From: Acidimicrobiales bacterium
Lineage (GTDB): Bacteria; Actinomycetota; Acidimicrobiia; Acidimicrobiales; SZUA-35
Direction: 5' to 3'
DNA length: 64,000 bases
NCBI GenBank assembly: GCA_965216685.1
Contig: OZ244195.1
Location: 209,610-273,609, forward strand
Part shown: piece after piece, positions 1 through 15,505 of the stretch
How positions within the stretch are numbered: position 1 is the first letter of the stretch
Layout of the letters: each line of letters opens with the position of its first letter
Notes under the pieces: generated by a model
Told to the model about the DNA's origin: nothing
The model's input: the letters and a program-made list of their open reading frames with translations, nothing else
Database searches by the model: none
Translations under genes and position numbers: made by a program

Positions 1-1
1 G

Positions 2-430
2 CTACAGGTCGATCAAATTGCCGACCATGCACTGGTGGCTGAAGTCGATCGGCTGGTCGAAGAGGCCGAGCCCGACGTCGTCTTGAGCCACTGGGTCGGC
101 GACAGCCACAGTGACCACCGCAGGGTGGCCCAGGCCGTCATCTCGTCCAGCCGGAGGTGGGACGCCTCGATCTACGCCTTCCGGCCGGGCGAACTTCGAG
201 CCGTCAGCCAGCTCGGCTTCAGCCCGACGATGCTGGTCGACACCACCCCGTTCCAGGAAACCAAGTTGGCCGCCATCAGCCAGTATCACTACCAGGATCA
301 ACGATTCCAGGCTCTCGACGGCGGCGACGTCAGCACCACCGATCGGTACTACGGCTCGCTTCGGCGGACATCGTTCGCCGAGCCGTTCATCGTGGTTCGA
401 CAGTTCGAGTCGGCCACGCTGCTGGCCTGA
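2..430 (+). CDS. LmbE/PIG-L family deacetylase, 5' end cut by window edge
   Basis: The frame is open from base 2, with no stop before the GTG at 35. PDVVLSHWVGDSHSDHRRVAQAV resembles the D-x-H-x-D-H region of PIG-L/LmbE deacetylases. The N-terminal HPDD-type motif is absent, so the gene probably starts left of the window. Confidence 0.6.
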   Translation, partial: LQVDQIADHALVAEVDRLVEEAEPDVVLSHWVGDSHSDHRRVAQAVISSSRRWDASIYAFRPGELRAVSQLGFSPTMLVDTTPFQETKLAAISQYHYQDQRFQALDGGDVSTTDRYYGSLRRTSFAEPFIVVRQFESATLLA

Positions 431-466
431 GGCCGGACCCGGCCGCGGCCCTTGGTGGTAAAAGCC

Positions 467-1558
467 CTACAGCTTTTCGATCCCCCGGGTGACCAGGGCC
501 GCCCAATCCCGTACCGGTGGTTCATAGTCCCCGACCGGGCTGAGCCAGCAGCCGATCCGCCGCAGTCGATCCCGAACCCGTTCACTCGTATCGGTCACCG
601 GACCGGAAATCGTCGAGGCCCCGAGGTCGATCACCGTCAGCGACCGATGGGGCAGTTGCCGGGGGTCGGTGTTCCCGTCGACGATGACCACATCGTTTGG
701 TCGACAGTCGTGGACGGCATCGGCGGAGCCGACGACGTGCACGGCCGGCGTCGCTCCCGGCTCGGACGGGCGGAGCGGTCCCACCGCTTCCTGTAGCCGA
801 CGGCGACGTTCGTCGGGCGAGACGGCCACAGCGGCCGGACTCACCGGGCGGGCGGGATTGCCGGCGGCCAGCACGCCCGGCCCGATGTCGGTGGCCACCA
901 CGGATCCGGCCGACACGATACTCCCGGGCCCGATGGTGACACCGGGCAGAATAACGGAACGGCTCATGCACACTGTGTGAGAGCCGATGGTGACACCGGC
1001 TTCCGACCAGGGGTACCCGTCGAGGGTCGACTGGCAGTGACCTCCACCATGGGTCAACAGCATGGCCTCGATCGAAAGGGCACCCAGGCCTGCCAGCTCG
1101 ACCGGGGCACCTACGTTCAGGCTGACGCCGGCCCCGAGGACCTGGGCCGGTCCCACGGTCAGTGAGGCCGCAGCGTTCTCCCAACCGCCACCCCCGATGT
1201 CGATGTTCTCGTTGGCCCACAGCTCCGGCCCCAGCACACAGCGCCGGGCTCGCAGGCGGAAGTTGGTTGACAGTTTGGCCCGACCACCGATCGACAGTCC
1301 TTCCAGACAGCGGAGGTCGCCGTCCGAATAGATGATGACGTTGTCGGCCACGTCGAGCTCGGCGGCCGACACGACCACGTCGCGACCGAAGTAGCAGTGG
1401 TCGCCGATGACGCCAACCTCAGCCGTAACCTCGGCCCCCAGGGCAAAGCGGGTGTGGTCCCCGACGGTGAAGCCTTGGTCCTCCAGGTGATGATGGTACT
1501 CCTGTGAGTAGGCCTCGTCGGCCTCTGACCACAGGCAGTCGGTCGCCGTCACCACCAA
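467..1558 (-). CDS. hexapeptide-repeat (left-handed beta-helix) acyl/acetyltransferase with an extra C-terminal domain
   Basis: Repeated [LIV]-G-x-x-x-x hexapeptides (GSHTVCMSRSVILPGVTIGPGSIVSAGSVVATDIGPGVLAAGNPARPV). It lies 9 nt downstream of the acyl-AMP ligase on the same strand. Confidence 0.7.
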   Translation of the reverse strand: MVVTATDCLWSEADEAYSQEYHHHLEDQGFTVGDHTRFALGAEVTAEVGVIGDHCYFGRDVVVSAAELDVADNVIIYSDGDLRCLEGLSIGGRAKLSTNFRLRARRCVLGPELWANENIDIGGGGWENAAASLTVGPAQVLGAGVSLNVGAPVELAGLGALSIEAMLLTHGGGHCQSTLDGYPWSEAGVTIGSHTVCMSRSVILPGVTIGPGSIVSAGSVVATDIGPGVLAAGNPARPVSPAAVAVSPDERRRRLQEAVGPLRPSEPGATPAVHVVGSADAVHDCRPNDVVIVDGNTDPRQLPHRSLTVIDLGASTISGPVTDTSERVRDRLRRIGCWLSPVGDYEPPVRDWAALVTRGIEKL

Positions 1559-1567
1559 ACCGCCCGC

Positions 1568-3265
1568 TCAGAGCTCGCTGACGACGAGTTCGTTGAGATC
1601 ATGCTCGAGAAAGCTTCTCCACAGCGTGGTCCGTCGCAGCTTGCCGCTGCTGGTGCGGGGAATCGAGCTGTCTCCGTGGTCGATGACGGTGACCGGCAGC
1701 TGACCGCCGACCGCTTCCCGACAGATTGTCATCATTCGCTCGACCACGTCGGCGTCGGGGACCCGCTCGAGGACGAGTAGCACGGCCTGCGAACCGTCCA
1801 GATGGGAGCCCATCACCACACAGCCCCGGAACTTCAGCGACGGTCGGGCCGTCCGCAACCGGTACTCGACGTCGTCGCTGCTGACCATTCGACCGTGGAC
1901 CTTGCAGGCCTCGCCGATACGTCCGGTGATGAACACCTCACCGTGGTACACGAAGCCGTAATCCCCGGTGCGGAGCACACCGTCGTCGTCGACCAGTGGA
2001 GTGAGCCGGTCGCCTTCCAGCCTCACCGCGGCCGATGGCGTACGGACCACAACCTCTCCCCCGACATCGTCCCATTGCTCAACCCCCACGGTGATTCCGT
2101 TGAGGGCCGGACCGTTTGACATGACCCAGTTCCCTTGGGACAACAGCTTTTCGGTGGCGTCGAAATCGTCGGCCGACAATTCGACCACACCGGGGTGACC
2201 GTTGGAGGAGGCTATTGCACCGTCGATCGACGACAAGCGGTCGAGATCGATCATCATCGGTGAGCGATTCACGTCGGATCCGGCGATACAGACCGTCGAC
2301 TCCGCCATTCCGTAGGCCGGCATGATCGACTGGGTGCGAAATCCCCGCTCGTGGAGTCGCCGGCAGAACCGGACCACTGCCAGCGGGTCGATCCGCTCTC
2401 CGCCCAGGCACAGTATTCGCCATGGCGTGAAATCCCACTTCGGCAGCGGGTCGGGCAGGCTGCGTAGACTGAATCGCAGGGCGAACGACGGGGAAGCCGT
2501 CATCGTGAACTGATCGGTGCCGAACGAGTCGAGCCAGGCTCGGGGCCGGGTGATGAACTGTTCCGGTGTCATATAGCGGGACTCGAGCTGGGAGGCGGTG
2601 GTATTCAGCATGCTGCCGACGAGACCAAGATCGTGGTACCACGGCAGCCAGGTGACGGCCTTGTCGTAGTGGCGGGTGTCGAGCCACTGACGGATGGCCT
2701 CCAGGTTGGCATCGAGGGCGTCGGGGCTGACACCGAGGATGGAACCGGCTCCCGTCGTACCCGATGTCATCTGCAGATAGGCCAGCTCCGATTGCCGTCG
2801 AGCGGCCCAATCGTCGCCCCGGCATGCCTCGATGTCGATGACGTCCACCTCGGCCTCGGCCACTGCCGAGCGCACGGTGCCGCCGGAAGACGAATCCACC
2901 AGAATCGCCCGACAGTCGGCCCGGGCCACGGTGTTCAACAACCGTTCACGAAACTGCTCATCCGACTCAAAGCCCCGGGATGCCACCACCAGCGGTGGAA
3001 GACCGGCCCACGTGGCGGCATACCAGGCAATGAACAGCTGCACGCTCACAGGGACGACCAACAGTAGATGGGAACCAGGCGGAAATCTGGCCTGTAGAGC
3101 AGCCGATGTGGAGCAAATGGTTGGAGCAAGGTCGGTGAATGAGTACCGCTGCCACTCTCCCGATTCCTCCAGAAACGAGATACCCGTCGACTCGTGCGGA
3201 CCGTCAAGCCAACCAAGAAAATCCATGGGGCGACATGCTAGCATTGGCAGCATGATCGATTCCAT
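1568..3265 (-). CDS. fatty-acyl-AMP ligase / AMP-dependent synthetase family
   Basis: Adenylation motifs are present: LQMTSGTTGAGS, YGMAEST, TGDYGF, SSGKLRR. The ORF track extends to 3388, but the first ~40 codons overlap the divergent oxygenase region. Candidate starts are 3265, 3253, 3244 and 3226, and the true start is uncertain. Confidence 0.75.
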   Translation of the reverse strand: MESIMLPMLACRPMDFLGWLDGPHESTGISFLEESGEWQRYSFTDLAPTICSTSAALQARFPPGSHLLLVVPVSVQLFIAWYAATWAGLPPLVVASRGFESDEQFRERLLNTVARADCRAILVDSSSGGTVRSAVAEAEVDVIDIEACRGDDWAARRQSELAYLQMTSGTTGAGSILGVSPDALDANLEAIRQWLDTRHYDKAVTWLPWYHDLGLVGSMLNTTASQLESRYMTPEQFITRPRAWLDSFGTDQFTMTASPSFALRFSLRSLPDPLPKWDFTPWRILCLGGERIDPLAVVRFCRRLHERGFRTQSIMPAYGMAESTVCIAGSDVNRSPMMIDLDRLSSIDGAIASSNGHPGVVELSADDFDATEKLLSQGNWVMSNGPALNGITVGVEQWDDVGGEVVVRTPSAAVRLEGDRLTPLVDDDGVLRTGDYGFVYHGEVFITGRIGEACKVHGRMVSSDDVEYRLRTARPSLKFRGCVVMGSHLDGSQAVLLVLERVPDADVVERMMTICREAVGGQLPVTVIDHGDSSIPRTSSGKLRRTTLWRSFLEHDLNELVVSEL

Positions 3266-3290
3266 CAGCGGGGAAAGAGACTCCCGGCAG

Positions 3291-4181
3291 GTGATCCGCC
3301 TGAACGATCTGTCAGCCCGAAAGTTCTGCTCGGCCGACGAGCTCCTGGCCGGAAAATTGGTCAAGGAGCCGTTGATCGCCAGGGACATTTCCAGCGTCGC
3401 CGGCCTCGACGTGGAGCTCAGCGACGAAGACTACGCCACGCTGGCCGCCGAGGAGGTGGCGTCGCTGCTTCAGGTCGGCCTGATCTTCGAGGCCTGTCTC
3501 GGTGTCGGATTCTGCTATGAACTGGTCCGCACGTCAGGCCCCGGCTTCGCCAGCCCCGACACCGAATACCAACTTCACCAGATCGGGGAGGAAACCCGGC
3601 ATTCCCGCTTGTTCGTGGAGTTGCTGCGGCAGATCAAACCGGAGGCCGGGAATGACTTCGACAGCCGGCCGGCCCGCTGGCTACGGGGCCGGTTCGCCCT
3701 GTGGGCGGCCCGCCGGCCGATGTTCTTTCAGACCCTGGTGCTAGGGGGCGAGCAGATTCCCGACATCATCCAGAAGCAGGTCGCCCAGCACCCCGACAGC
3801 GACCCGCATCTGGCCGAAGTCTGTGCGTATCATCGAGCGGAGGAGGCCCGCCATATGGTGTTCGCCCGGCTGTCGTTCGGTCCATTGTGGAATTCGACAA
3901 CCCGGTTCGATCGCCTGCTGGTCCGCTATCTCACACCGCTGGTCCTGTGGTCGCTATGGGATGCCTTGGTCCATCCCGGCATGTACCGCGCCGTTGGGCT
4001 ACCCGGATGGTCCACATGGAACGCTGTTAGGCAGGAAAGCGGACGGGTTCGGCTCCGCCAAACAGCAACTCGGGCCACGCTGCGGGCGCTCAAAAAGGAG
4101 GGGGTATTCGAAGGAAAGTCGGTGCCGCGGCCATGGCGGTCGCTGTGCGGAGTCGACCGGCGAGGCCGTCCGATTGACTAG
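3291..4181 (+). CDS. ferritin-like diiron oxygenase (AurF/diiron-oxygenase-like)
   Basis: Two E-E-x-R-H motifs (GEETRHSRLF and AEEARHMVF), each preceded by an upstream Glu (IFEA, GGEQ), fit a four-helix-bundle diiron site. The ORF track starts at 2832, but 2832-3290 is antisense to the ligase. A GTG at 3291 follows a purine-rich stretch, and an ATG at 3252 is an alternative start. Confidence 0.55.
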   Translation: MIRLNDLSARKFCSADELLAGKLVKEPLIARDISSVAGLDVELSDEDYATLAAEEVASLLQVGLIFEACLGVGFCYELVRTSGPGFASPDTEYQLHQIGEETRHSRLFVELLRQIKPEAGNDFDSRPARWLRGRFALWAARRPMFFQTLVLGGEQIPDIIQKQVAQHPDSDPHLAEVCAYHRAEEARHMVFARLSFGPLWNSTTRFDRLLVRYLTPLVLWSLWDALVHPGMYRAVGLPGWSTWNAVRQESGRVRLRQTATRATLRALKKEGVFEGKSVPRPWRSLCGVDRRGRPID

Positions 4182-4320
4182 TTGAACCCGCTCCGTGATG
4201 GTTGACCGAGAGAGTGGCATGAGATTTCATCGACCTCTATGATCATGCATGCAAGAGGGCTCTCATCATCGAGCGGGGCTTTCTCCCAACTGCCACCACA
4301 TCTGTGTTCAGGAGGCCATC

Positions 4321-4746
4321 GTGCGAATCGAGGATGTGTCCAACCGAGCCGAACTTGAACGCGCCATTGCCGATCTTTCCGACGACGAGATCGCCGAGAA
4401 GGTGCAGGAACTCGGCGCCGATCTGGTTCTGAAGAAGCTGTTCACGGTGTGCGCCGATGTCTACGATCCAACCAAAGGACCCCGCTCGGAGACGGTTGTC
4501 CACTGGCAGGTGTCCGACAATGGAGACACCCACGACTGGTACATGATCGCCGATCGGTCCCGGATGATCTGCACCCAGAGCCATAGCGGCAGCCCTACCG
4601 TCACCGCCAGGCTCGAAGTGCCGTTGCTCATGCGGATCATGGCCAGGGTCAGCAATGGTGTCGTCGAGGTGGCCAAGGGGCGGATACGGCTCTCCGGCAA
4701 TGCCATGGCGGTCATGGACATGGATTCATGGTTCCCGGCGGACTAA
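4321..4746 (+). CDS. SCP2 sterol/lipid-carrier domain protein
   Basis: The GTG at 4321 lies 5 nt after a GGAGG site. The C-terminal GRIRLSGNAMAVMDMDSWF resembles the SCP2/alkyl-sulfatase C-terminal fold signature. Confidence 0.55.
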   Translation: MRIEDVSNRAELERAIADLSDDEIAEKVQELGADLVLKKLFTVCADVYDPTKGPRSETVVHWQVSDNGDTHDWYMIADRSRMICTQSHSGSPTVTARLEVPLLMRIMARVSNGVVEVAKGRIRLSGNAMAVMDMDSWFPAD

Positions 4747-4758
4747 CAGACGCCGACA

Positions 4759-5691
4759 ATGCTGCTGGTTGAAGGAGTATCCAAATCCTATGGTGACGTT
4801 GTTGCCCTGCGTGACGTGTCATTCGACATCGAACCGGGAGCCATCGTCGGACTTGTCGGCCCCAACGGCGCCGGCAAGACGACACTGCTCAGCATCATCG
4901 TCGGCATCCTGACCGCTGACCGGGGAACCGTGACGATCGCCGGATACGACGTCGCCAGCCAGCGACGTCACGCCGTCAAGAACGTCGGCTTCGCCGCCCA
5001 GGAGACCGGGCTCTACCCCCGGCTGACAGTGGGTCGGAATCTCCAGCACTTTGCTCGGCTGGTCGGTGTCCCCTGGCACAGTGCCCGGCAAGAGGTAGGT
5101 CAGGTTGCGTCCCGACTCCAACTGGACGACCTTCTGGACCGACGGGTGAGCGACCTCTCCGGTGGAGAACGCCGCAGGGTGCACGTGGCCGCCGCTCTCT
5201 TTGGCCAACCCCGCCTCCTACTGTTCGACGAAGCCACGGCCAACGTCGACGTCGACGCCCGGTCCGACTTCCTCGCAGTAGTGCGGATGATGGCCGAACG
5301 GGGTGCCGCCATCTTGTTCAGCTCGCACTATCTCGTCGAGGTCGAGCAACTCGGTGCCGAGGTCCTGATGCTCTTCGACGGCACGGTCCGAGCCCGAGGA
5401 TCGATCGACGACCTGGTGCGGGGCCACGGCAGTGCCCAGTTGGAAGTCCGGTTCGATGAGCCACCCGCTGTCCTACCCGAGCTGCCCGGCCTCCGGGTTG
5501 AACGGCGGAAGGACGGCCTGTGCATCAGCACCGAATCGGGGGCAATCGACGTTCCCGCCGTGCTGGCCTCGCTCAACGATCGGGGCCTGCCGGTCACCGG
5601 CATGGACTTTCGACCGCCGAATCTTGAGTCCGTCTACGTCAACTTGAGGTCGGAACACTCCGACATCCTGGCCGGATCAGCCGGACCATGA
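4759..5691 (+). CDS. ABC transporter ATP-binding protein (DrrA-like exporter type)
   Basis: Walker A GPNGAGKTT, signature LSGGERRR and Walker B LLLFDEA are present. The stop overlaps the start of the permease gene. Confidence 0.9.
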   Translation: MLLVEGVSKSYGDVVALRDVSFDIEPGAIVGLVGPNGAGKTTLLSIIVGILTADRGTVTIAGYDVASQRRHAVKNVGFAAQETGLYPRLTVGRNLQHFARLVGVPWHSARQEVGQVASRLQLDDLLDRRVSDLSGGERRRVHVAAALFGQPRLLLFDEATANVDVDARSDFLAVVRMMAERGAAILFSSHYLVEVEQLGAEVLMLFDGTVRARGSIDDLVRGHGSAQLEVRFDEPPAVLPELPGLRVERRKDGLCISTESGAIDVPAVLASLNDRGLPVTGMDFRPPNLESVYVNLRSEHSDILAGSAGP

Positions 5692-6446
5692 ACCGATTCC
5701 AGCGGACGGTGGCTGTCAACGACATGGCCATCATTGCCCGCGATCCGACGGTCATCGTCATGTTCATCCTCCTACCTCTGGCCGCCATGAGCATCTTGGC
5801 GCCGCTGACGTCACTGGCCCTGCAGGACTCGGGCTTCGTCGACGCCAACGGTTCGGAGCAGGTCGTTCCCGGCATGGCCACCATGTTCGCCTACTTCGCC
5901 GTCACCTTCCTCGGCATGTCGATGCTGGACGAGCGTAACAACAACACGTGGATCCGCCTTCGAGCCTCACCGGCCACCCTTCTCGATCTCTACGTCGGAA
6001 AGGGCTTCACCCCCTTTGCCCTGGCCGTGGCCCAGCAAACCGTACTGTTCATCCTCGGTGCGCTGTTTCTCGGTCTTCGGTTCCAGGGTTCGATCCTAGG
6101 TGCGGTCCTGGTCGGCATCAGTTTCTGCCTCAGCCTGGTGTCCCTGGGGATGGTCGTCGTTTCCGTAACGAGCTCGCCGCAGCAGGTCTCCGTGCTGGCA
6201 AACCTGTCGTTGCTCATATTCGGAGGATTCGGTGGAGCATTGGCCCCCATCGAGGTGATGCCGTCGTGGGCCCAACAGATCGCCCCGTTGACCCCGGGCT
6301 ACTGGGCCATAACCGGATACCGACGGTTCGTCCTCACTGACGCCGGAGTGGGCCAGTCGGCGGTGCCGATTCTGGTGTTGTTGTCGATGTCGGCCGCTCT
6401 GGGCGCTCTCGCCATCCGTCGACTACAAGGCGAGGGGTCGAGATAG
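5688..6446 (+). CDS. ABC-2 type transporter permease
   Basis: About six hydrophobic segments. The gene is translationally coupled to the ATPase (ATGA overlap at 5688-5691). Confidence 0.8.
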   Translation: MNRFQRTVAVNDMAIIARDPTVIVMFILLPLAAMSILAPLTSLALQDSGFVDANGSEQVVPGMATMFAYFAVTFLGMSMLDERNNNTWIRLRASPATLLDLYVGKGFTPFALAVAQQTVLFILGALFLGLRFQGSILGAVLVGISFCLSLVSLGMVVVSVTSSPQQVSVLANLSLLIFGGFGGALAPIEVMPSWAQQIAPLTPGYWAITGYRRFVLTDAGVGQSAVPILVLLSMSAALGALAIRRLQGEGSR

Positions 6447-7732
6447 TGGACGCCGTCATCCCCGGCCGCGATCGATCGGCGGCGACCGATCGGCGGACGG
6501 TCCGCGAGCTTTCACGCCGTCACCTCAACCGAGGTCTGTCGACCCTGCACGATCTCCTCAACCTTCCCATGGAGGTCCATGGCGAGGGAGCGGTGATCAA
6601 GGCCGATGACGGTATCGAGTATCTCGACTGCAGCGGCTATGGAGTGTTCTTTCTCGGCCACCGTCACCCCCGGCTGGTGGCTGCGGTGTCCGAGCAGTTG
6701 CAGTCGATGGCTCTCAGCTCACGCCTGTTGCCGAACAAGGCGCTGGTCGAAGCGGCCGCCGCCTTGGCCGACGTGGCACCAGCGCCGCTTACCAAGGTGA
6801 CGTTCACCAACTCCGGGGCCGAGGCCGTCGAGCTGGCCATCAAGTTGGGGCGTCTCGGCGGTTGCCGCCGCCTCGTGGCCATGCGGGGAGGATTCCACGG
6901 CAAGACGATGGGTGCGCTCTCGGCCACCGGCCGAGCCCGGTATCGGGATCCGTTCCTGCCTCTGCTCGACGACGTGCTCCATGTGCCCTTCGGCGAGGTC
7001 GAGGCGCTCGAATCCGTCCTGGTCGGACGACCGCCGGCCGTCGTTCTCATCGAACCGGTGCAGGGTGAGGGCGGTGTGGTCGAAGCACCGGCCGGCTATC
7101 TCGGAGCGGCAACCCGATTGTGTCGGGAGACGGGATCGATTCTGGTGTTCGACGAGATCCAGTGCGGTCTGGGGCGAACCGGACGGTGGTGGGCCTGTCA
7201 ACGAGATCCCCGGGCCAACCCGGACATCCTGCTCAGTGGGAAGTCGTTGGGCGGCGGCATTCTGCCTTGCGCTGCGGTAGTGGCCACCACGTCGGTGTAC
7301 GAACCACTCGACCACGAACCTCTGATGCACTCCTCGACCTTTGCCGGCAACCCGCTGGTGGCCCGGGCCGTGACAGCCACCATCGAGGTCATAGAGAGCG
7401 AAGATCTGGTGGCCAGGGCCGATGCCTTGGGCCGCAGGCTGGCCGGCCATCTGCAACCGTTGGCAGAGCAGTTCGACTCACTGGCCGAGGTCCGGTGCGC
7501 CGGCCTGCTCATCGGTTTGGAGTTCCACGATCCGACGAAGGCCTTGATGTTCCTGGAGAACCTGCTCGACCAGGGAGTGCTGGCCTGCTGGTCGCTGAAC
7601 GCCGACACCACTGTTCGGTTGACACCACCGGCGATCCTGAGCGAAGACCAGGCCGACCGGGTGGCCGGCGCCGTGGCCTCGGCCGTGGGCTCTCTTCGAT
7701 CGTCACCTCTATCAGGGAAGAAGATGAAATAG
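6446..7732 (+). CDS. class III pyridoxal-phosphate aminotransferase
   Basis: SGAEAVELAIKL, FDEIQCGLGRTG and the PLP-lysine context LLSGKSLGGG are present. The GTG start overlaps the permease stop by 1 nt. Confidence 0.85.
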   Translation: MDAVIPGRDRSAATDRRTVRELSRRHLNRGLSTLHDLLNLPMEVHGEGAVIKADDGIEYLDCSGYGVFFLGHRHPRLVAAVSEQLQSMALSSRLLPNKALVEAAAALADVAPAPLTKVTFTNSGAEAVELAIKLGRLGGCRRLVAMRGGFHGKTMGALSATGRARYRDPFLPLLDDVLHVPFGEVEALESVLVGRPPAVVLIEPVQGEGGVVEAPAGYLGAATRLCRETGSILVFDEIQCGLGRTGRWWACQRDPRANPDILLSGKSLGGGILPCAAVVATTSVYEPLDHEPLMHSSTFAGNPLVARAVTATIEVIESEDLVARADALGRRLAGHLQPLAEQFDSLAEVRCAGLLIGLEFHDPTKALMFLENLLDQGVLACWSLNADTTVRLTPPAILSEDQADRVAGAVASAVGSLRSSPLSGKKMK

Positions 7733-8206
7733 ATGGGTTCCTTCAAAATCAGAAGCTACGTGCACGATGCGCCAACGGCCGACGCGTACAAGCTGGTCTC
7801 CGCCTTCGAGGAGTACCCCCGGTTGTGCGATGCCGTCGTTTCGGTGGATGTCGTCGAAAGCGGCGACGGGTTCCTGGTCAGCGCCTGGGAGGTCCACTTC
7901 CGGCGCGGCATTCTCCGCTGGACGGAACGGGCCCAGTTCGACCCGGCGGCCCAGCGGATCACCTTCTCCGCCGTCGAGGGAGACGTCGACGAATTCACCG
8001 GCCATTGGCTGATCGAGGAACAGGACGGCGGCTCGATCGTGGAGTTCTTGGTCGACTTCGACATCGGCATTCCCACCCTGGAACACATCCTTGACCCGAT
8101 CGCCGAGGAAGCATTGTTCGACAACATGCAATCCATTCTTCGGAGCCTCTTCGACAACGCCCAACTCGTCTCGGCGGAAGGAAGCACGGCGGAATGGAGT
8201 TCCTAG
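7733..8206 (+). CDS. SRPBCC (polyketide cyclase/dehydrase, START-like) family protein
   Basis: Size and pattern (FEEYPRL...W...F..G...W.....FD......I.F....GD.DEF.G.W) are typical of the cyclase/dehydrase lipid-binding fold. Confidence 0.6.
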   Translation: MGSFKIRSYVHDAPTADAYKLVSAFEEYPRLCDAVVSVDVVESGDGFLVSAWEVHFRRGILRWTERAQFDPAAQRITFSAVEGDVDEFTGHWLIEEQDGGSIVEFLVDFDIGIPTLEHILDPIAEEALFDNMQSILRSLFDNAQLVSAEGSTAEWSS

Positions 8207-9306
8207 AGCGGGCCAGACAGGTTCTGGTCGACGCCCTCCCGGAGCTTCACGACAAACTGGCGGCCCAGGAATCGAGCCAGTGGAATCATGGTGACCACGG
8301 AACGGAGGCCATTGAATGGTTCCGGCTGTCGGGCGGCCCGGGTTTGTTGATCCCCGAGGATCTGGGAGGTGCCGGACTGACCGCGGTCGAAGCGGTCCGG
8401 CTGCAACGAGGTCTGGGGTCCATTGACCCGGCCCTGGCTGTGGCCACGACAATGCATCACTTCAGCGTGGCCACCCTGTTGGAGATAGTCGACTCGGGAT
8501 TGGAGTCCATCCTGCTTGAAGGGATTGCCCGGGAGAACCTGATCGTGGCCTCCGGCTTCGCCGAGGGATCGCCCCGATCCGGGCTCCTGTCACCGACGAC
8601 GACCGGTGTCGAGGCAAACGGGACCATCACCCTCAACGGTCGCAAGAGACCGTGCAGCCTCAGCCGCTCGATGGATCTGCTGGCCGCCAGCGCCGACATT
8701 GGCGGGCGGATGGCGGTCGTCATGATTCCGGCCGGGCTGGCGGGAATCGAGATCGTCGACTGCTGGCGGTCACCGGTGCTGGCGGCCACGCAGAGCTTCG
8801 AGGTCCGCCTCCACGATGTACAGATACCGGCCAAGATGGTGTCGTATGCCGACGACACCGAGCTGTTGGACCGGGCACAGATCGGTGGCTTCACCTGGTT
8901 CATCGCCCTTATGACGGCGTCGTACGTCGGCGCGGCATCGATCCTCCTTAACCAGGCTGTGGCCCGCAATGACGAGTCGATAGCGGAAGAGTTGGCCCTC
9001 CTGACCTCCCAGCTGGAAACGGTCATGGCGGCGGTGGAATCGGTGGCCCGACTTCTCGAGGAGCCCGAACGGGATGAGCCTCTGCTGGCTCGAGCCATGA
9101 TGGTGAAGACAACAGCCGATCGGGTGATCGGCGATGTCGGTCTGGATGCCTTCCGTCTGCTCGGTGGTGGCGCATTCATGACCCGTGAGCTGCTGCCCCT
9201 CCAGCTGGCAACAACCCAGGCGGCCGGGTTCCACCCTCCCAACCGGGCCGCCGCGGCCAGGGCCATCGCCGACTGGATGGCCGGCCAACCGCTCATGCTG
9301 GACTGA
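8194..9306 (+). CDS. acyl-CoA dehydrogenase-like protein
   Basis: The length and three-domain layout are ACAD-like, with a C-terminal helical domain (FRLLGGGAFMTRELLPLQ). Catalytic residues were not verified. Confidence 0.55.
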   Translation: MEFLERARQVLVDALPELHDKLAAQESSQWNHGDHGTEAIEWFRLSGGPGLLIPEDLGGAGLTAVEAVRLQRGLGSIDPALAVATTMHHFSVATLLEIVDSGLESILLEGIARENLIVASGFAEGSPRSGLLSPTTTGVEANGTITLNGRKRPCSLSRSMDLLAASADIGGRMAVVMIPAGLAGIEIVDCWRSPVLAATQSFEVRLHDVQIPAKMVSYADDTELLDRAQIGGFTWFIALMTASYVGAASILLNQAVARNDESIAEELALLTSQLETVMAAVESVARLLEEPERDEPLLARAMMVKTTADRVIGDVGLDAFRLLGGGAFMTRELLPLQLATTQAAGFHPPNRAAAARAIADWMAGQPLMLD

Positions 9307-9339
9307 GACGGGCGGCGAGCTGTGATCCCGAGCAGGGAC

Positions 9340-9885
9340 CTACTGCTGCACGAAGGCCGCCGGACTCACCGACAGTTGCATGCTGAGCAATAGCCAGTCC
9401 CGGGCGATGGCCAGCGCCGGAAAGGTTCCTTCCGGGTCTCGGATGCTGGGCAGGCCCTCGCCGACCGAGTCCATATGGCGATCGACGGCGGTCAGGAGTC
9501 GAGTCGTCCACCGCCGGTAGCCGTCGACGGTTTCCTCGTCGGGGGCCGTCGACAGGCCAAGCAGCTCGGAGATCGTTTCGGGATCGACCGACGAGAAGAC
9601 CTCCTGGTATCCGGCCGTCGGAACCTGGGTGTAGCCAATTGGTCCCCCAGCCCTGGCACTCAGCACCGACAGCACCGACAGCACGAGGCGGCGCCCCATG
9701 ATCGGCAGACAATGAAGGTACTGGGGATGGCTGCCGGCCGTCTCGATGACCCCCTCGATGTCCTCTATTCGAGCCTGCACATCGAGAAAGGTGCGGAACA
9801 CCATCGACGCCTGCCCGGCGGCGTGAACCCGGATGTCGTCGAACTTGTCGACGATGCTCACCGGCTGATCGTGGTCTGCGCTCAT
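9340..9885 (-). CDS. hypothetical protein, coupled to the upstream nucleotidyltransferase gene
   Basis: It shares a 4-nt start/stop overlap with 9882..10880. I recognise no family. It contains a VLSVLSVLS repeat. Confidence 0.4.
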   Translation of the reverse strand: MSADHDQPVSIVDKFDDIRVHAAGQASMVFRTFLDVQARIEDIEGVIETAGSHPQYLHCLPIMGRRLVLSVLSVLSARAGGPIGYTQVPTAGYQEVFSSVDPETISELLGLSTAPDEETVDGYRRWTTRLLTAVDRHMDSVGEGLPSIRDPEGTFPALAIARDWLLLSMQLSVSPAAFVQQ

Positions 9886-10880
9886 ACTCCCACCACCTCG
9901 ATCTGCACCAGTCCCCGCTGCAGCAGCTCGCTGACCGAGGGATCGGGCCGCTCACCCAGTGGTCCGGTCCAGATGAACTCGTCGATCGAACCGAGCCGAC
10001 CGTTCACGATGCATCCCTGTCGATCCCATAGCGAAACAACCGTCTGACCGCCAAGGGGTCGGAGTTCGACCCCCGGTGACCAGGTAATACCGATCTCGGC
10101 ATCGGGAGGATGCTCGATCTCGCCGACGGCCCACCGCCGAGCCCGGTCAACCCAGTCCGGTCGTCCGGCGAGATCGTCCAGCGACCCGGCCCGCCGAATG
10201 CGTTCGTGTCGCTCAGCGAAGTCGGATCGGTCGGCGTCCAACACCTCCAGACCCAGAAACTTCGTGTTCACATAGAGGTAGCCCAGCTCCGTCAGGTCGG
10301 CCTTGAGGGCGGCTACCGCGGCGTCGACCGCGCTTTCGACGGCCGCCGGGGACCCAGGAGGCAGAAGATCGAGGGCTACCAGCCGGCGCCACTGCCGTTC
10401 ACGCCAGTAGACGACGCACGAGTTGATCAGGGCTGATCCGCCCAGATCGACCAGCGTGGCGGCGATCTGCTCATCGACGATCACCGGGGCCCCAATGACC
10501 AAGCGGGCCAACTGATTGTGGGTGGTCCGCCGTTCCAGCAGGACCGACATCGGGTCGACACTGAGAGTCCGCTGTCGCCACTCGTCAATCAGGCTGACTC
10601 GGCGGTCCAGCTGCTTGCGGGTCATCGTGTTGATGTCAACCAGGGTGGCCAGCTCGTGGGCGATGCTCTGCCCGAACGGCACCTCATCATCGGTGACCAC
10701 CAGGAGATCGATGTCGCTCCGTTCGTTGCCGTAACCGGCGGCCACCGAGCCGGTGGCCACCACATGACGGGGAGCGTACACCTCGGTACCGGCGATCTCG
10801 GTCAAGCGGTCGATAGTCACTCCGGCTCGACGAAGGAAGGCCGCCACGTTGTCCCTCGGGTCGCCGATGGTCCGGATCAT
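9882..10880 (-). CDS. nucleotidyltransferase-domain protein
   Basis: The Pol-beta-type NTase motif GSVAAGYGNERSDIDLLVVTDD (G-S...D-x-D) is present. The gene is translationally coupled to both the ACP gene and the downstream ORF. Confidence 0.6.
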   Translation of the reverse strand: MIRTIGDPRDNVAAFLRRAGVTIDRLTEIAGTEVYAPRHVVATGSVAAGYGNERSDIDLLVVTDDEVPFGQSIAHELATLVDINTMTRKQLDRRVSLIDEWRQRTLSVDPMSVLLERRTTHNQLARLVIGAPVIVDEQIAATLVDLGGSALINSCVVYWRERQWRRLVALDLLPPGSPAAVESAVDAAVAALKADLTELGYLYVNTKFLGLEVLDADRSDFAERHERIRRAGSLDDLAGRPDWVDRARRWAVGEIEHPPDAEIGITWSPGVELRPLGGQTVVSLWDRQGCIVNGRLGSIDEFIWTGPLGERPDPSVSELLQRGLVQIEVVGV

Positions 10881-11155
10881 GATTCGCCTCCCGGGGTTGG
10901 CAGTAGGTCGGCCACCACGGTCGCCAGATCACCGACCGCCATGTCGGTCCGGAACCGGGAATCAGCGGCAACCCGGTTGGCGAACTCCTTGGGCATGCCC
11001 CGGCCGATGGCCAGCTCGAGGTGGACCACCGACTCGACCAGCGACAGCGAATCGATTCCGGCGTCGACCAGGGAGGTCGACTCGTCAACCGGGCCGTCGG
11101 CACCGGCCACCAGCTTGAGCACGTCGAGCACCGCGGCCCGGTGTTCCCCGCTCAC
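10877..11155 (-). CDS. acyl carrier protein (stand-alone)
   Basis: 92 aa with the phosphopantetheine attachment motif LVDAGIDSLSLVE. Confidence 0.8.
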   Translation of the reverse strand: MSGEHRAAVLDVLKLVAGADGPVDESTSLVDAGIDSLSLVESVVHLELAIGRGMPKEFANRVAADSRFRTDMAVGDLATVVADLLPTPGGES

Positions 11156-12117
11156 CGGCGGGCCCAGATCTGTTCGCCCCGGCCGGTGTTGATGCCTTCC
11201 GTCTCAGCCCAGAACACCACCGTCGACCGCCAGGTGTCGAGAACGGTGGCCGAATCCATGGTGATGGCCGAGTCGAAGGCGTAGTCCTGCTCGAAGTAGG
11301 GAAGATAGACCTCGATCATTTCCAATAGTGCCATCTGGGCTCCTGACAACTCCGGTTCGATCAGCGGCCGGAAGAGCCGGTGATACACATCCTGGGAGAC
11401 GAACTTGGGCTTCGGACGATCAGGCGGGAGTATGTCGAACAGAACATCGACCATCTGCTCCAGGGTCGGTGCCGCCACTCCGGAGCTGGCATGCACGACG
11501 TCATCGCCGCTCGGTTGGCCGATCTCGGAGGCGATGACGTCGATGACGGCGTCGACCGGGACCACGTCGAGCTGCGCACCGCCTTTGCCGGGGATGGCGG
11601 GGACGAGCCCACACGAGAGCATCCGGATGAACTGGAAGATACCGGAGAAGCGGAGTATGTGCCCGCTGCCACGGCTGCCGATGACCAATGACGGCCTGAC
11701 GATCGTCGGTTCGACGCCACTGGCACGGACCGCCTGTTCGGCCGACCACTTCGACCGTTCGTAGGAGTTGTTGTGCCGACCCGACCGCGGCGGAGCATAA
11801 GCCGACGACACGAACAGAAAGCGGGGTGGCGGGCTGCAGCCGGCGACCGAAGCGGCCAAGGCGGCCGAGGCCGCCACATTTGTCGGCTCCAGCTCATCCC
11901 ATGCCCCGCCGAGGCGAATATCGGCAGCGGCGTGAATCACAAGATCGACCTGACGAACGGCCTCATGCAACTGATCAGGAATGGGATCGTGGAGATCCCA
12001 GAGTATGTCGCCCTGCCGACCGACCGTGACAACGGTGCACATGTCGTCGATCAACCGTTTGTGCAACAACGAGCCGATGGCACCGGTTGACCCGGTCAGG
12101 AGAACGGAGTGGGTCAT
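11152..12117 (-). CDS. thioester-reductase-like SDR (NAD-binding, fatty acyl reductase type)
   Basis: N-terminal Rossmann motif VLLTGSTGAIGS and SSAY...Y..SK-like catalytic context (SSAYAPP...YERSKWSAE). It has 4-nt overlaps with the ACP and LLM genes. Confidence 0.65.
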   Translation of the reverse strand: MTHSVLLTGSTGAIGSLLHKRLIDDMCTVVTVGRQGDILWDLHDPIPDQLHEAVRQVDLVIHAAADIRLGGAWDELEPTNVAASAALAASVAGCSPPPRFLFVSSAYAPPRSGRHNNSYERSKWSAEQAVRASGVEPTIVRPSLVIGSRGSGHILRFSGIFQFIRMLSCGLVPAIPGKGGAQLDVVPVDAVIDVIASEIGQPSGDDVVHASSGVAAPTLEQMVDVLFDILPPDRPKPKFVSQDVYHRLFRPLIEPELSGAQMALLEMIEVYLPYFEQDYAFDSAITMDSATVLDTWRSTVVFWAETEGINTGRGEQIWARR

Positions 12118-13235
12118 TTCGAATCGTTGTTCCCTTCAGCCAGTAGGTCTCGAAGCCGGGCAACTCGTTCCACCGAGCCAGGCATTAGTGCCATATTGGT
12201 GAGCGGAGCGGTGTCCAGAGGGGCGAAATACTGCAGGCCGGCATCCTGGTACTGCCTGATCTTGGCTGCCACCTCTTCCACGGTGCCATGGATGAAATAG
12301 TCGTGAGCGATGAGGGGATCGGGCAAGCTGTCCATCGCCGCCCTCAGCTCGGCCTCGGTCAGGGCCTCGGGTATGTACTCGAGGACCGTCGTTCCCAGCC
12401 CCAGCGGATGCTTCAACCCCAGGGCCGACCAGAACTCCTCGGGAAGCACCAGTAGAAACTGCTTGGCCGCCGACGTGGCCATCATGGCGTGGGCCTCCTC
12501 GTGGGTGTCGGCCAGGCAGATCGGGGTGTTGAGCCCGGCGACGATGGACATGGGGTCGCGGCCGGCCCGCTCAGCTGACGATCGAACGACAGCCAGGCGT
12601 TGGGCGTATTCGTCGGGATCGAACGGCATGAACGGCAACCAGCCGTCTCCCAGGCGTCCGGTTATCTCCAGCATCCGAGGTCCGTGAGCACCAATCCAGA
12701 TCTCGGGATACGCGTCGTGGAAGGGAGCGATGTCGAGCACGGCGTGATCGATCGACCAGTGACGCCCGTCGAAGTGGGGGTCATCCTGTTCCCACATCGA
12801 CCTGATGACCTGGAGCGCCTCGTCGAACCGCGAAACCAGTCGATTCGAATCGAGGCCGTACGGCGTGAGGTTGGCCGCTTCCCCGCAACCCAATCCCAGG
12901 ACAAACCGTCCCTGGGTCAGCAAACTCATGGTCAGCGCCTTGACCGCCAGCTGGGCCGGTGCCACCCGAACAGGATCGCTGACGGCAGTAACGAATCGAA
13001 TGTTGTCGGTGTGTTGAGCCCAGGCCGCCATGGTGGTGAACGGGTCGAGGAAGGCGTGGGGACTGGGCAGCATGGACGCCACGTTGCCGACTTCGGGCCA
13101 GAGCGCCTTGGGAAACCACGACATGATGCGGTCCGGCACGAACACAGCATCCAACTCCGCCTGTTCGGCTTCGAACACCATCTGATCGGCGATGGCCAGT
13201 GGAGGCACAGCCATGACACCAAGTCCGACCTTCAT
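12114..13235 (-). CDS. LLM-class (luciferase-like) flavin/F420-dependent oxidoreductase
   Basis: The TIM-barrel LLM pattern is present (FVLGLGCGEA...., IWIGAHGPRMLEITGRLGDGWLP). Confidence 0.7.
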   Translation of the reverse strand: MKVGLGVMAVPPLAIADQMVFEAEQAELDAVFVPDRIMSWFPKALWPEVGNVASMLPSPHAFLDPFTTMAAWAQHTDNIRFVTAVSDPVRVAPAQLAVKALTMSLLTQGRFVLGLGCGEAANLTPYGLDSNRLVSRFDEALQVIRSMWEQDDPHFDGRHWSIDHAVLDIAPFHDAYPEIWIGAHGPRMLEITGRLGDGWLPFMPFDPDEYAQRLAVVRSSAERAGRDPMSIVAGLNTPICLADTHEEAHAMMATSAAKQFLLVLPEEFWSALGLKHPLGLGTTVLEYIPEALTEAELRAAMDSLPDPLIAHDYFIHGTVEEVAAKIRQYQDAGLQYFAPLDTAPLTNMALMPGSVERVARLRDLLAEGNNDSK

Positions 13236-13237
13236 CC

Positions 13238-13738
13238 CTACGAGACTCGTTCTTCCCGGCCCAGGATCCGAGCGACGTCGGCCAGCAATCCGGTCAGCAC
13301 CGTCTGGATGTTGCCGTCGATGACATCACCGATCAAAGGCAGACCGAAGGTGCCGGCCAACTGGACCGACAGCCGCGTGGCTCCACCGTCGGCATCTGCG
13401 AGCGACCACTCTCCTTGCAGGGAGGCCAGATCACCGGCCAGGTGCTCCACAGTGGCCCGATGGTTGTCGGGATCGAAGTTCTCCCGGGTCGTACCGTGCA
13501 GTACTGACCCATTGACCAGCAGCTCCCATTTGGTGACCCGAGCGGTCGGCGTCTGCTCCTTGACAGCCAGCGATCGCACACTTGGATGGGCCGGAACAGG
13601 GGGCTCGGAGGTCAGTGACGCCCAAACGTGCTCAACCGGCTCAGCGGTGATCCAGGTGGTGGCGACGTCGAACACGCAAGAGAATCTAGCACAGGCATCC
13701 TGCATATACCTGCGCCAGGATGTCGGTCGAATCAACAC
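13238..13738 (-). CDS. SRPBCC family protein (second copy in the cluster)
   Basis: The Polyketide_cyc2-like pattern is present (W..L........P.V.S...........W.L..NG). An alternative start lies at 13705. Confidence 0.5.
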   Translation of the reverse strand: MLIRPTSWRRYMQDACARFSCVFDVATTWITAEPVEHVWASLTSEPPVPAHPSVRSLAVKEQTPTARVTKWELLVNGSVLHGTTRENFDPDNHRATVEHLAGDLASLQGEWSLADADGGATRLSVQLAGTFGLPLIGDVIDGNIQTVLTGLLADVARILGREERVS

Positions 13739-13842: not shown

Positions 13843-15447
13843 TTAGGAGACTGTCTGAACCCTGATGTCGTCGATCAGGTTTCCAACGCTGCCTCGGGTC
13901 ACGGCGGAGATGGCGAACTGAATTCGATTGACTCCCGGCGGCACCCGATACTCGCCCGACCGTCGCTGCCACCGGTCGCCGGACGCCGTGAACTGGACAG
14001 CAGGAGCTCCGGCCGGACCGAACTGGACGGCCACCGTTTCCCCTTCGCCGGTTCGGCTTCGATGTTGAAAACTCCAAACCAGGGTTGCGCCGGGAGTGAC
14101 GTCGAGCTGCTGGGTGATGGTGGTGGGAGCCGTTCCGTTGAGTTCGAGGAAGTGCGAGCCGCTGGCCGCTGTCACCCCCTCGAATCCGCTGGCCCAGATC
14201 TCGAAGGTGCCATTGGAGCTGGCCCATCCGGCGATGCTGTCGTTGCCGTAGAAACGGACGGTGTCGACGCCGCCGACGCCCTGCTCGAAGTCGCCGTTGG
14301 CAACGGCGATCGCCGGCCTCTCCACGGGGGCGGCGTCTTCGCCGTCGTCATCGTCATCGTCGCCGCCGCCATTGTCACCGCCGCCGTCCTGGCCGCCGCC
14401 GACGTAGAAGTGGAGTGGTGGGCTCTCCTCGGTGACCTGGCGGGAACGGGTGCGGCCGGTAACCGTCCAGCGCACCGTCCGGTCGTCGTAGCGGCGAACG
14501 TCGACCGTCCATGAGTCGGAGCGCCACCGACTGCGGCCGACCTGCCGCCAACGGTCGTCGTCCCACACGTACACCGTGAAGCGGTAACGCAGCTGCTCAT
14601 CGCTCCCCTCGGCCTGCAAGGTCACCCGGCTGGAGGAGACGGCCTGGGGGTTCTGAGGGTCGGACCCGCCGGGACCGACGGGTCGGGCCCACGGACCCTC
14701 CGGCTCGGCAGCCGTGGTGGTCGTGGGCTCGGTGGATGGGGTGGTGGAGGACGCAACCGTCGTCGACGAGGAGGCGGTCGATGCGGTGGTGGACGGCGGC
14801 CGGGTCGTGGTGGTGGACACCCAGTCGCCGTCGGGGCCGGTCAACGCGTCGTCGGGTTCGATGATCTGTCCGGGCACGAACCCGGAGCCCGACGACGATC
14901 CCAAGGTCCCGGTGGAGCGGCCTGGCGTCTGGCCGCCTGGCGTCTGGCCGCCGCCGGCCGACTGGCTGGAAACGGCCAAAGCTTGAGCGTCAACATCGAC
15001 CGAACCAGATTCGGAGGCACTCGAGACCTCCGACTCCCCGTCGGTGTCGGCCGCCCCGGCTGTGGCCGCCGCGGAGTCGACCTCTGCCGCCGAGTCGGTC
15101 TCGGGGGCATCGCCATTGCCGCCCAACGACTGCCCGTTACGGGAGATGAACAGTGCGAAGATGGCGATGAGTACGGCGGTAGCACCAAGGGCCAGTAGGG
15201 GCCACTTGCCGGCCTCGACCAGCGACCGCCGCCAATCGCCACCGGCCGACTCGACGGCAACGGCCCGGCGATCAGGTTGCTGGAAGGGCAGCTCGTCGGT
15301 ATCGAGACGAACCGACACGCCGGTCGACGGGCGGCTGGTGACCGCTGATGAGTCGTCGGCCAGAACCCAACCCCGAGGGCCATCGCCGGCGCCTCGGCTG
15401 ACGCCTTCGTCGACAAGCTGGTCGGAGCCCACGTTGTCCACCTCCAC
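13843..15447 (-). CDS. membrane-anchored surface protein with a C-terminal DUF642/galactose-binding-like domain
   Basis: One TM segment (WPLLALGATAVLIAIFALFI), a Ser/Thr/Pro-rich linker, a Gly/Asp low-complexity run (GGGDNGGGDDDDDDGED) and a C-terminal domain (FEQG....SIAGW.....FEIW......ASGSHFLELN). Confidence 0.55.
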   Translation of the reverse strand: MEVDNVGSDQLVDEGVSRGAGDGPRGWVLADDSSAVTSRPSTGVSVRLDTDELPFQQPDRRAVAVESAGGDWRRSLVEAGKWPLLALGATAVLIAIFALFISRNGQSLGGNGDAPETDSAAEVDSAAATAGAADTDGESEVSSASESGSVDVDAQALAVSSQSAGGGQTPGGQTPGRSTGTLGSSSGSGFVPGQIIEPDDALTGPDGDWVSTTTTRPPSTTASTASSSTTVASSTTPSTEPTTTTAAEPEGPWARPVGPGGSDPQNPQAVSSSRVTLQAEGSDEQLRYRFTVYVWDDDRWRQVGRSRWRSDSWTVDVRRYDDRTVRWTVTGRTRSRQVTEESPPLHFYVGGGQDGGGDNGGGDDDDDDGEDAAPVERPAIAVANGDFEQGVGGVDTVRFYGNDSIAGWASSNGTFEIWASGFEGVTAASGSHFLELNGTAPTTITQQLDVTPGATLVWSFQHRSRTGEGETVAVQFGPAGAPAVQFTASGDRWQRRSGEYRVPPGVNRIQFAISAVTRGSVGNLIDDIRVQTVS

Positions 15448-15505
15448 AGCCGATCATTCTACCGGCGACACCATGGATGATCATGCTGAGGCCTGGCAGA
15501 TGACC

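Follow-up and report, generated by a model that had tools for sequence, protein, structure and literature searches.

Aliphatic N-oxygenated and azoxy lipids are rare and bioactive and, to our knowledge, are so far associated with clusters from Streptomyces in which VlmA, VlmO and VlmB are always present. The azoxy comparators used here are the clusters for azodyrecin (ady/azd, MIBiG BGC0002805), KA57-A, elaiomycin and valanimycin (vlm). Aliphatic azoxy clusters have been defined by a VlmA-type gene close to VlmH (PMC9379638). In this biosynthesis, Ady2/AzdP generates an aldehyde, Ady4/AzdQ converts it to a fatty amine, and this amine is N-hydroxylated by the VlmH-like Ady3/AzdH acting together with a reductase (bioRxiv 10.1101/2023.10.13.562208; PMC11705231). 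The route to fatty amines through adenylation, an acyl carrier protein (ACP), a thioester reductase (TR) and a transaminase (TA) is experimentally established for PtTamA/PtTamH and TabQ/TabE/TabA (PMC9594044; bioRxiv 10.1101/2025.08.11.669332). A computational analysis was conducted of a stretch of 64,000 nucleotides, referred to here as the window, from the genome of an Acidimicrobiales bacterium (assembly GCA_965216685.1, contig OZ244195.1, positions 209,610 to 273,609; G000:C1:209610-273609 in the numbering used below). The window carries the right half of a strain-specific island that is, on balance, probably an orphan gene cluster directing the biosynthesis of an N-oxygenated amino-lipid for export.

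Extent and borders of the island

Beyond the left edge of the window, the cluster runs on for a further 12.9 kb. In two congeners (G018 and G003), tblastx of both regions against the genome places the orthologue of the gene that ends at C1:196674 immediately next to that of the DUF642 gene, which starts at approximately C1:223447. The intervening 26.8 kb (C1:~196,680-223,440, or window positions of about -12,930 to 13,830) should therefore be seen as one insertion, and its extent coincides with that of the cluster. Being a discrete insertion relative to two congeners, the block is more than a chance assembly of genes. The right-hand junction lies between 13739 and 13830, where synteny with both congeners resumes at the DUF642 gene. 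At 63.6%, the GC content of the island is below the 65.6% of the genome (6th percentile). A search for tRNAs and for flanking repeats of at least 11 nt at the island found neither, and Pfam scans of the island genes turned up no integrase or transposase families. A homologue of the diiron oxygenase gene of the island was not found among the 24 genomes of the same genus that were searched.

A module common to Streptomyces azoxy loci

Four of the window's genes recur in Streptomyces loci of the aliphatic azoxy type. The first is the acyl-CoA dehydrogenase (ACAD)-like gene (8194..9306, plus strand), which encodes an ACAD-fold flavin-dependent monooxygenase that is VlmH/Ady3/AzdH-like and is a candidate alkylamine N-hydroxylase. 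Homologues of this protein are present in 21 of 81 genomes of a genus identified as Streptomyces through that same protein. Module counts given here refer to 21 fetched loci of the Streptomyces type (L180-L200), in stretches of about 20 kb. The ACAD-like protein has a homologue with 31-42% identity in all 21. A 38-49% homologue of the class III omega-aminotransferase (AT; 6446..7732, plus strand; PF00202, 298 bits) lies beside the VlmH-like gene in 17 of them, and a 32-44% homologue of a polyketide-cyclase-like SRPBCC protein, predicted to bind a ligand (7733..8206, plus strand; PF03364, 63.8 bits), lies beside the AT in 15. The short-chain dehydrogenase/reductase (SDR) of thioester-reductase type (11152..12117, minus strand; PF07993, 81 bits), referred to as the TR, has a 26-29% homologue within the module in nine.

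In Streptomyces the usual order of these directly adjacent genes is ACAD-TR-AT-SRPBCC, and beside them are found a PF09924 gene (VlmA/Ady7/AzdA-like), a gene for a small membrane protein resembling VlmO and one for a flavin reductase. The VlmA-like gene is within the 20-kb stretch in 11 of the 21 loci. For the island AT, the module copy is the top genome-wide match in all five genomes tested, and in one genome (G447) the same is true of the island TR and ACAD-like proteins. A search with the TR in 400 genomes of the phylum returned only partial matches (29-41%), that in G447 sitting in an azoxy-type module. The earlier sequence-only reading had proposed fatty acid activation, loading of an ACP, reduction, transamination and N-oxygenation, followed by handling by lipid-binding proteins and export, and this logic is backed by the homology of AT, SRPBCC, ACAD-like protein and TR to the azoxy-cluster module (PMC9379638; bioRxiv 10.1101/2023.10.13.562208).

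The N-N bond-forming genes of the azoxy clusters were not recovered. There is no PF09924 (VlmA-type) match in the whole genome and no tblastn match with a Streptomyces VlmA-like query. Nor is there a tblastn match in the genome to the VlmO-like query from L180, a short divergent membrane protein of which a remote homologue could escape such a search. The known route to N-N bond formation is therefore missing. Conversely, the 21 Streptomyces loci hold no fatty acyl-AMP ligase (FAAL), no homologous stand-alone ACP and no PF11583 homologue at the BLAST level. Membership of the vlm/ady/azd type of azoxy cluster is rejected, since VlmA and VlmO are absent while the amine-forming and N-hydroxylating module is common to both. 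The suggestion that the cluster is not a described pathway thus stands as far as azoxy membership is concerned, but the front half of the cluster does match the described azoxy pathway.

The ACAD-like family is small, with 138 representatives at E<=1e-30 among 1.84e9 in an exhaustive HMMER search. One of its clusters, at 43% identity, comes from Streptomyces and has an azodyrecin producer, strain RM72, among its members (PMC9379638). The AlphaFold2 (AF2) model has a pLDDT of 93, and its top folds are DnmZ, TdsC, KijD3 and DszC. In sequence, the protein is 31-50% identical to the VlmH-like, alkylamine-type family, compared with about 20% to KijD3 and DnmZ. The ACAD-like gene is the best-supported candidate for the N-oxygenase of the island, ahead of the AurF-type protein.

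The SRPBCC gene follows directly after the transaminase in 15 of the 21 azoxy-type loci (for example L180:8007-8471), and it is not discussed in two papers on azodyrecin. It emerges here as a conserved member of the azoxy-cluster module, and its product may carry either the fatty amine or the hydroxylamine.

Gene organization and the proposed pathway

All 16 genes named in the sequence-only reading are found in the open reading frame (ORF) listing at or near the positions it gave, and Pfam and NCBIfam bear out their families with the exception of a 181-aa ORF, which matches no family. They form three tightly packed units, as had been proposed: 13738-9340 on the minus strand, 3252-9306 on the plus strand and 3265-467 on the minus strand. 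The 4-nt overlaps claimed for the whole of the first unit are present at four junctions, but a 2-nt gap separates the genes for the luciferase-like oxidoreductase (LLM) and SRPBCC protein. In the core of the plus-strand operon the junctions are -4, -1, 0 and -13. The FAAL and diiron genes are head-to-head (window 3227-3265), with annotated 5' ends that overlap by 14 nt; a FAAL start at Met14 would instead leave 24 nt between them. With either arrangement there is hardly any space for two conventional promoters.

The FAAL (1568..3265, minus strand) has FAAL models as its top NCBIfam matches (212 bits, below cutoff), and all 15 of its PDB matches at E<=1e-20 are FAALs or FAAL domains (7r7e, 3pbk, FadD32/23/28). 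Its nearest relatives in JGI metagenomes are 24-32% identical. The stand-alone ACP (10877..11155, minus strand) scores 25.7 bits with PF00550 against a cutoff of 20.8 and bears a GIDSL motif with Ser36. The acyl-AMP ligase and ACP assignments of the sequence-only reading hold. The TR has TGSTGAIG and Y119-E-R-S-K-W motifs, the latter containing Y119ERSK123, in agreement with the TGxxGxxG and Y-x-x-x-K patterns. The top PDB matches of the AT are the putrescine aminotransferase YgjG and PigE, and the enzyme is, as had been claimed, an aminotransferase, of class III and putrescine-AT/PigE-like. Elsewhere in the genome are three flavin reductases, four genes of the phosphopantetheinyl transferase (PPTase) family, and CofD for F420.

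The account favoured here, with some caution, leads from a fatty acid through a long-chain amine to an N-oxidised, exported product. The FAAL would adenylate the fatty acid and load it onto the stand-alone ACP. The TR-type SDR would reduce the acyl-S-ACP and free the aldehyde, which the class III AT would turn into a primary alkylamine. The VlmH/Ady3/AzdH-like flavin monooxygenase would then N-hydroxylate the amine, with its reduced flavin supplied by a reductase whose gene lies outside the island. The AurF-family enzyme may take the nitrogen on to the nitroso or nitro state, oxidise the intermediate in another way, or act in parallel. Hydrophobic intermediates would be carried by the SRPBCC and SCP2-like proteins and the product exported by the ABC-2 pumps. 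We infer these catalytic steps, as well as the chain length and the final structure. The outcome without VlmA and VlmO could be a nitroalkane, an oxime, a hydroxamate or an azoxy dimer, the last by spontaneous coupling of nitroso compound and hydroxylamine such as has been described for AzoC (PMC11705231).

The diiron protein

The diiron gene (3252..4181, plus strand) encodes an AurF-family oxygenase of a divergent actinobacterial clade, which passes the PF11583 gathering threshold with 108.5 bits against 29.6. Its start had been placed at 3291, but 3252 is more likely because the residues ahead of 3291 are conserved in homologues and the database product is 309 aa. The residues E80, E113/E114, H117, E167, H194, E197/E198 and H201 are invariant in 24 homologues, so that both E114-x-x-H117 and H194-x3-E198-x2-H201 are conserved. 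These presumably correspond to the metal-site positions in AurF numbering, and the extra histidine, H194, is one that we take to be typical of AurF and CmlI. The AF2 model has a pLDDT of 92.6, with high confidence in the motif-bearing helices. Its best folds are AurF and CmlI (TM ~0.66, 12-16% identity), whereas the TM to acyl-ACP desaturase is 0.33-0.36. An acyl-ACP desaturase of primary metabolism, an identity that the sequence-only reading had named as refuting its proposal, is rejected, since fold and Pfam point to AurF/CmlI.

That reading had also looked to the AurF-type protein for N-oxygenation of the amine. The PF11583 family, fold and motifs agree with such a role, and the TetR and lipid genes around homologues speak neither for nor against it. 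The best-supported N-oxygenase is the ACAD-like protein, and the diiron enzyme may act in one of the ways proposed above.

It is possible, though fairly unlikely, that the steps to the amine and N-hydroxylamine are as described while the AurF-family protein hydroxylates, desaturates or halogenates the ACP-bound acyl chain. Acyl-ACP desaturases and dimetal halogenases of the CylC/ColD type work on chains with FAAL and ACP partners, and the ColD-type acyl halogenases, which do so, have been described as distant AurF relatives (PMC5333925). The head-to-head position with the FAAL gene is consistent with this, as is the lack of any usable match, to AurF and CmlI included, when the diiron protein or its profile was searched against PDB sequences with HMMER. 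Homologues at 41-55% identity adjoin TetR genes, and sporadically lipid genes, rather than amine-forming genes. Set against an acyl substrate are the PF11583 placement at 108 bits, the ranking of CmlI and AurF as best structures with the acyl-ACP desaturase far below, and the retention of the extra histidine in H194-x3-E198-x2-H201. Furthermore, the diiron gene heads the operon that holds the transaminase and the N-hydroxylase.

The clade of PF11583 proteins of about 300 aa to which this enzyme belongs is common in Acidimicrobiia, Mycobacterium, Actinomadura and Spirillospora, and no characterised member of it was found. The 80 species-representative loci with 41-50% diiron homologues (L007-L086) are mostly from Acidimicrobiia and Mycobacterium. 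A TetR gene is the commonest neighbour of the diiron genes of this clade, at 34 of 75 loci, and thiolase-like, 3-ketoacyl-ACP synthase III (KAS III), ACAD and LLM genes occur sporadically beside the 41-55% homologues.

In one Streptomyces locus, the gene after the VlmO-like gene (L198:13793-14773, 326 aa) is presumed VlmB-like from its position. Its hhalign probability against the island diiron protein is 4.5%, with only E-x-R-H motifs common to the two. The L198 gene has a sub-threshold PF11583 match (20 bits) and two D/E-E-x-R-H motifs. The sequences hint that VlmB-type oxygenases may be remote ferritin-like relatives of AurF; VlmB has been called heme-oxygenase-like in a review.

Conservation of the cluster

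The closest homologues of the diiron protein are 53-55% identical, and the closest of the ACAD-like protein is 50% identical. One of each, P0004 (diiron, 53%) and P0246 (ACAD-like, 50%), appears to be on a Logan contig of 26,849 nt, which suggests that the two belong to one sister cluster.

Several points weigh against the proposed route to an N-oxidised amine. Co-conservation of the whole gene set, which the sequence-only reading had made a test of its proposal, was seen in no genome or contig searched. None of the other cluster genes is present at the 80 species-representative loci with 41-50% diiron homologues, and 80 JGI metagenome loci with FAAL relatives have no shared cluster neighbours save for two loose pairings of FAAL with an AurF-like gene. 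Since the diiron clade usually stands alone beside a TetR gene, with lipid-metabolism neighbours only sporadically, its substrate may not be a nitrogen compound. The FAAL, the ACP and TR, and the AT and ACAD-like genes are spread over three operons, and there is no flavin reductase within the island. The TR, a divergent protein of 321 aa, scores 52.9 bits with TIGR01746, the curated model for TR domains, far short of its cutoff of 213, and its identity to the Streptomyces reductases is low (26-29%). Lastly, the left half of the island, with its fusion, B12-radical SAM, kinase-like, TauD-family and ComB-like genes, is unexplained by the pathway.

On a soil metagenome contig (L134; Ga0137415_10007172, 1-9757), an independent cluster has genes for a FAAL and a PPTase alongside an operon. 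That operon encodes an ICMT-like methyltransferase, a KAS III-like protein, a PF11583 protein (26% identical to that in the window), a short protein like class II aminoacyl-tRNA synthetases, a stand-alone NAD_binding_4 reductase and a rubrerythrin-like protein.

The sugar-nucleotide half

To the left of the window the genes are, in genome order (L087), an unknown low-GC ORF, a methyltransferase, a ComB-like phosphatase, a TauD-family dioxygenase, two dTMP-kinase-like proteins, a nucleoside diphosphate (NDP)-sugar dehydrogenase::AMP-binding fusion, a B12-radical SAM protein, a second ABC-2 pump, a xylose-isomerase-like TIM-barrel and LmbE. The fusion is a protein of 976 aa (G000:C1:202391-205321; L087:12392-15322, minus strand) that joins a complete NDP-sugar dehydrogenase, with three UDPG_MGDP_dh domains, to an AMP-binding adenylase. 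This architecture is in none of 120 homologues listed from 5.8e9 proteins. In a JGI protein, P0174, the partner of the adenylase is instead an NDP-sugar epimerase/dehydratase. For the kinase-like protein of 454 aa, the C-terminal half has no Atlas match.

The LmbE/PIG-L-type deacetylase gene straddles the left window edge, so that 142 C-terminal residues lie in the window (2..430, plus strand). The sequence-only reading described it as truncated, and it is indeed cut by the edge, but in the genome it is complete, with 213 aa and a start 212 nt to the left of the window. The full ORF scores 58.7 bits with PF02585 and has weak similarity to BshB1. Facing it is a hexapeptide-repeat (LbH) acyltransferase of 363 aa (467..1558, minus strand; PF00132), for which the best NCBIfam match, far below cutoff, is a WcaF-type acetyltransferase. 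This gene shares a transcription unit with the FAAL, the gap being 9 nt.

The upstream sugar-nucleotide genes may be linked to the amine pathway. Decoration of the product with a sugar is possible on the basis of the genes left of the window, and it would be speculation that an adenylated uronic acid is coupled to the amine. A further reading, which is rather doubtful, is that the island encodes a third, so far undescribed way of making N-oxygenated aliphatic lipids. The VlmH-type and AurF-family enzymes would act together on the ACP-derived fatty amine, and with no need of VlmA, VlmO or VlmB the lipid formed would be a nitro compound, a nitroso-derived azoxy compound or a hydroxamate. The fusion would then join to this lipid a uronic acid derived from a nucleotide sugar. 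If true, marine actinobacteria would be the source of a new class of glyco-amino-lipids that are exported.

Similarly improbable is a lipo-aminosugar or nucleotide-sugar product resembling tunicamycin or lipid A, with LmbE deacetylating an N-acetyl sugar, the hexapeptide transferase re-acylating it with the chain carried by the FAAL/ACP pair, and the ACAD-fold enzyme N-oxygenating an NDP-amino sugar in the manner of KijD3 and DnmZ. The FAAL-hexapeptide operon does converge on LmbE, and the island holds the fusion, two dTMP-kinase-like genes, B12-radical SAM, a methyltransferase and the second ABC-2 pump. TDP-sugar nitrososynthases are also among the top folds for the ACAD-like model. However, in sequence that protein is far nearer to the VlmH-like family than to KijD3 and DnmZ, and the AT is of class III (putrescine-AT/PigE-like) rather than a DegT-type sugar aminotransferase. 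In addition, no glycosyltransferase was found in the island, and the best matches of the hexapeptide protein use acetyl-CoA.

It is very improbable that the island is a mosaic of unrelated travelling gene sets, one for a lipid amine and one for sugar nucleotides or the envelope, with no single product: no other locus was found that combines both halves and in Streptomyces the module is unaccompanied by FAAL, ACP, AurF-like or sugar genes, but the whole block is one insertion with sharp junctions common to two congeners, its GC content is uniform and slightly low, and no mobility genes or signs of internal junctions were seen.

Other genes in the window and at the island ends

Downstream of the diiron gene on the plus strand is a putative lipid-binding protein that is SCP2-like (4249..4746), a weak assignment with 18.8 bits for PF02036, below the cutoff of 21.3. 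It is followed by an ABC-2 exporter (4759..6446, plus strand) made up of an ATPase (4759-5691) and a six-TM permease (5688-6446), with matches to PF00005, PF01061 and PF12698 and likeness to DrrA/DrrB.

The minus-strand operon begins with a second SRPBCC protein (13238..13738; PF10604, PF03364), which is a paralogue of the 7733-8206 protein with 27% identity in tblastn. The LLM that follows (12114..13235, minus strand) scores 191.7 bits with PF00296 and is nearest to F420-dependent subfamilies (TIGR03619, 127.5 bits, below cutoff). It may be a tailoring enzyme.

After the TR and ACP is a Pol-beta-type nucleotidyltransferase (NTase; 9882..10880, minus strand), which is DUF6001-like (PF01909, 27 bits; weak PF19464). 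Only three homologues, of 26-32% identity, are present in 5.8e9 proteins, and no real homologue was found in 400 genomes of the order, nine other matches being marginal (E 5e-5 to 1e-3). The look-alikes in the Atlas are clusters of NTP_transf_2/DUF6001. The last gene of this ACP operon encodes the 181-aa protein (9340..9885, minus strand), which has no Pfam or NCBIfam match and is single copy in the genome.

To the right of the island (window 13843-16300), the DUF642 envelope protein is kept in the congeners. In the G018/G003 regions (L179/L178), the xth gene beside it is present in G003 and is unmatched at the equivalent position of G018. An ORF of 288 aa (G000:C1:196871-197737) at the left end of the island lies in a stretch of 52-61% GC and has no Pfam match. 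It may encode a regulator, or be left over from the vehicle by which the island arrived.

Comparison with known systems

The cluster retains the module for N-hydroxylating fatty amines, has lost the N-N machinery and has gained an oxygenase of the AurF family. It is therefore a test of the fate of a VlmH-type hydroxylamine when no N-N bond is formed, and it also tests the function of a large, uncharacterised actinobacterial clade of PF11583. Separate FAAL, ACP, TR and TA parts for converting a fatty acid to a fatty amine are of biocatalytic interest.

With the azoxy clusters the island shares a homologous reductase, an omega-transaminase and a VlmH-type N-hydroxylase (26-49% identity), as well as the SRPBCC gene of the module. 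An ABC exporter and, apparently, a ferritin-like diiron oxygenase are also found in both. It differs in that the genome has neither VlmA/Ady7/AzdA (PF09924) nor a VlmO-like gene, and in that its diiron protein is of the AurF family and is not detectably homologous to the L198 gene that is VlmB-like by position. There is no flavin reductase in the island, which adds the FAAL, ACP, LLM, NTase and sugar-nucleotide half, and the host is not a Streptomyces.

The tambjamine and prodigiosin cascades (PtTamA/PtTamH, TabQ/TabE/TabA, PigE) likewise proceed by adenylation, a carrier, thioester reduction and an omega-transaminase to a fatty amine, and the island AT is PigE-like. In the island, however, these domains are separate proteins in different operons, and pyrrole-forming genes are lacking. 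The amine would be N-oxygenated rather than condensed with a bipyrrole.

The arylamine N-oxygenases AurF, CmlI and AzoC have in common with the island enzyme PF11583, the four-helix diiron fold and the His/Glu positions, including two E-x-x-H motifs and H194. In contrast to them, the island enzyme belongs to a separate clade that is common in Acidimicrobiia and Mycobacterium. Structural alignment gives an identity of only 12-16%, HMMER finds no match to it among PDB sequences, and its substrate is likely to be aliphatic.

The pvf/ham clusters (PMC11659414) resemble the island in having an AurF-type oxygenase (PvfB/HamC), adenylation, a carrier, a reductase, an SRPBCC protein (PvfD/HamE) and a transaminase (HamG). 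No equivalents of HamA, HamB or HamF were seen in the island. Whereas those clusters use a non-ribosomal peptide synthetase of the A-T-R type with an amino-acid adenylation domain, the island has a FAAL, all of its parts are discrete proteins, and it carries an extra, VlmH-like monooxygenase.

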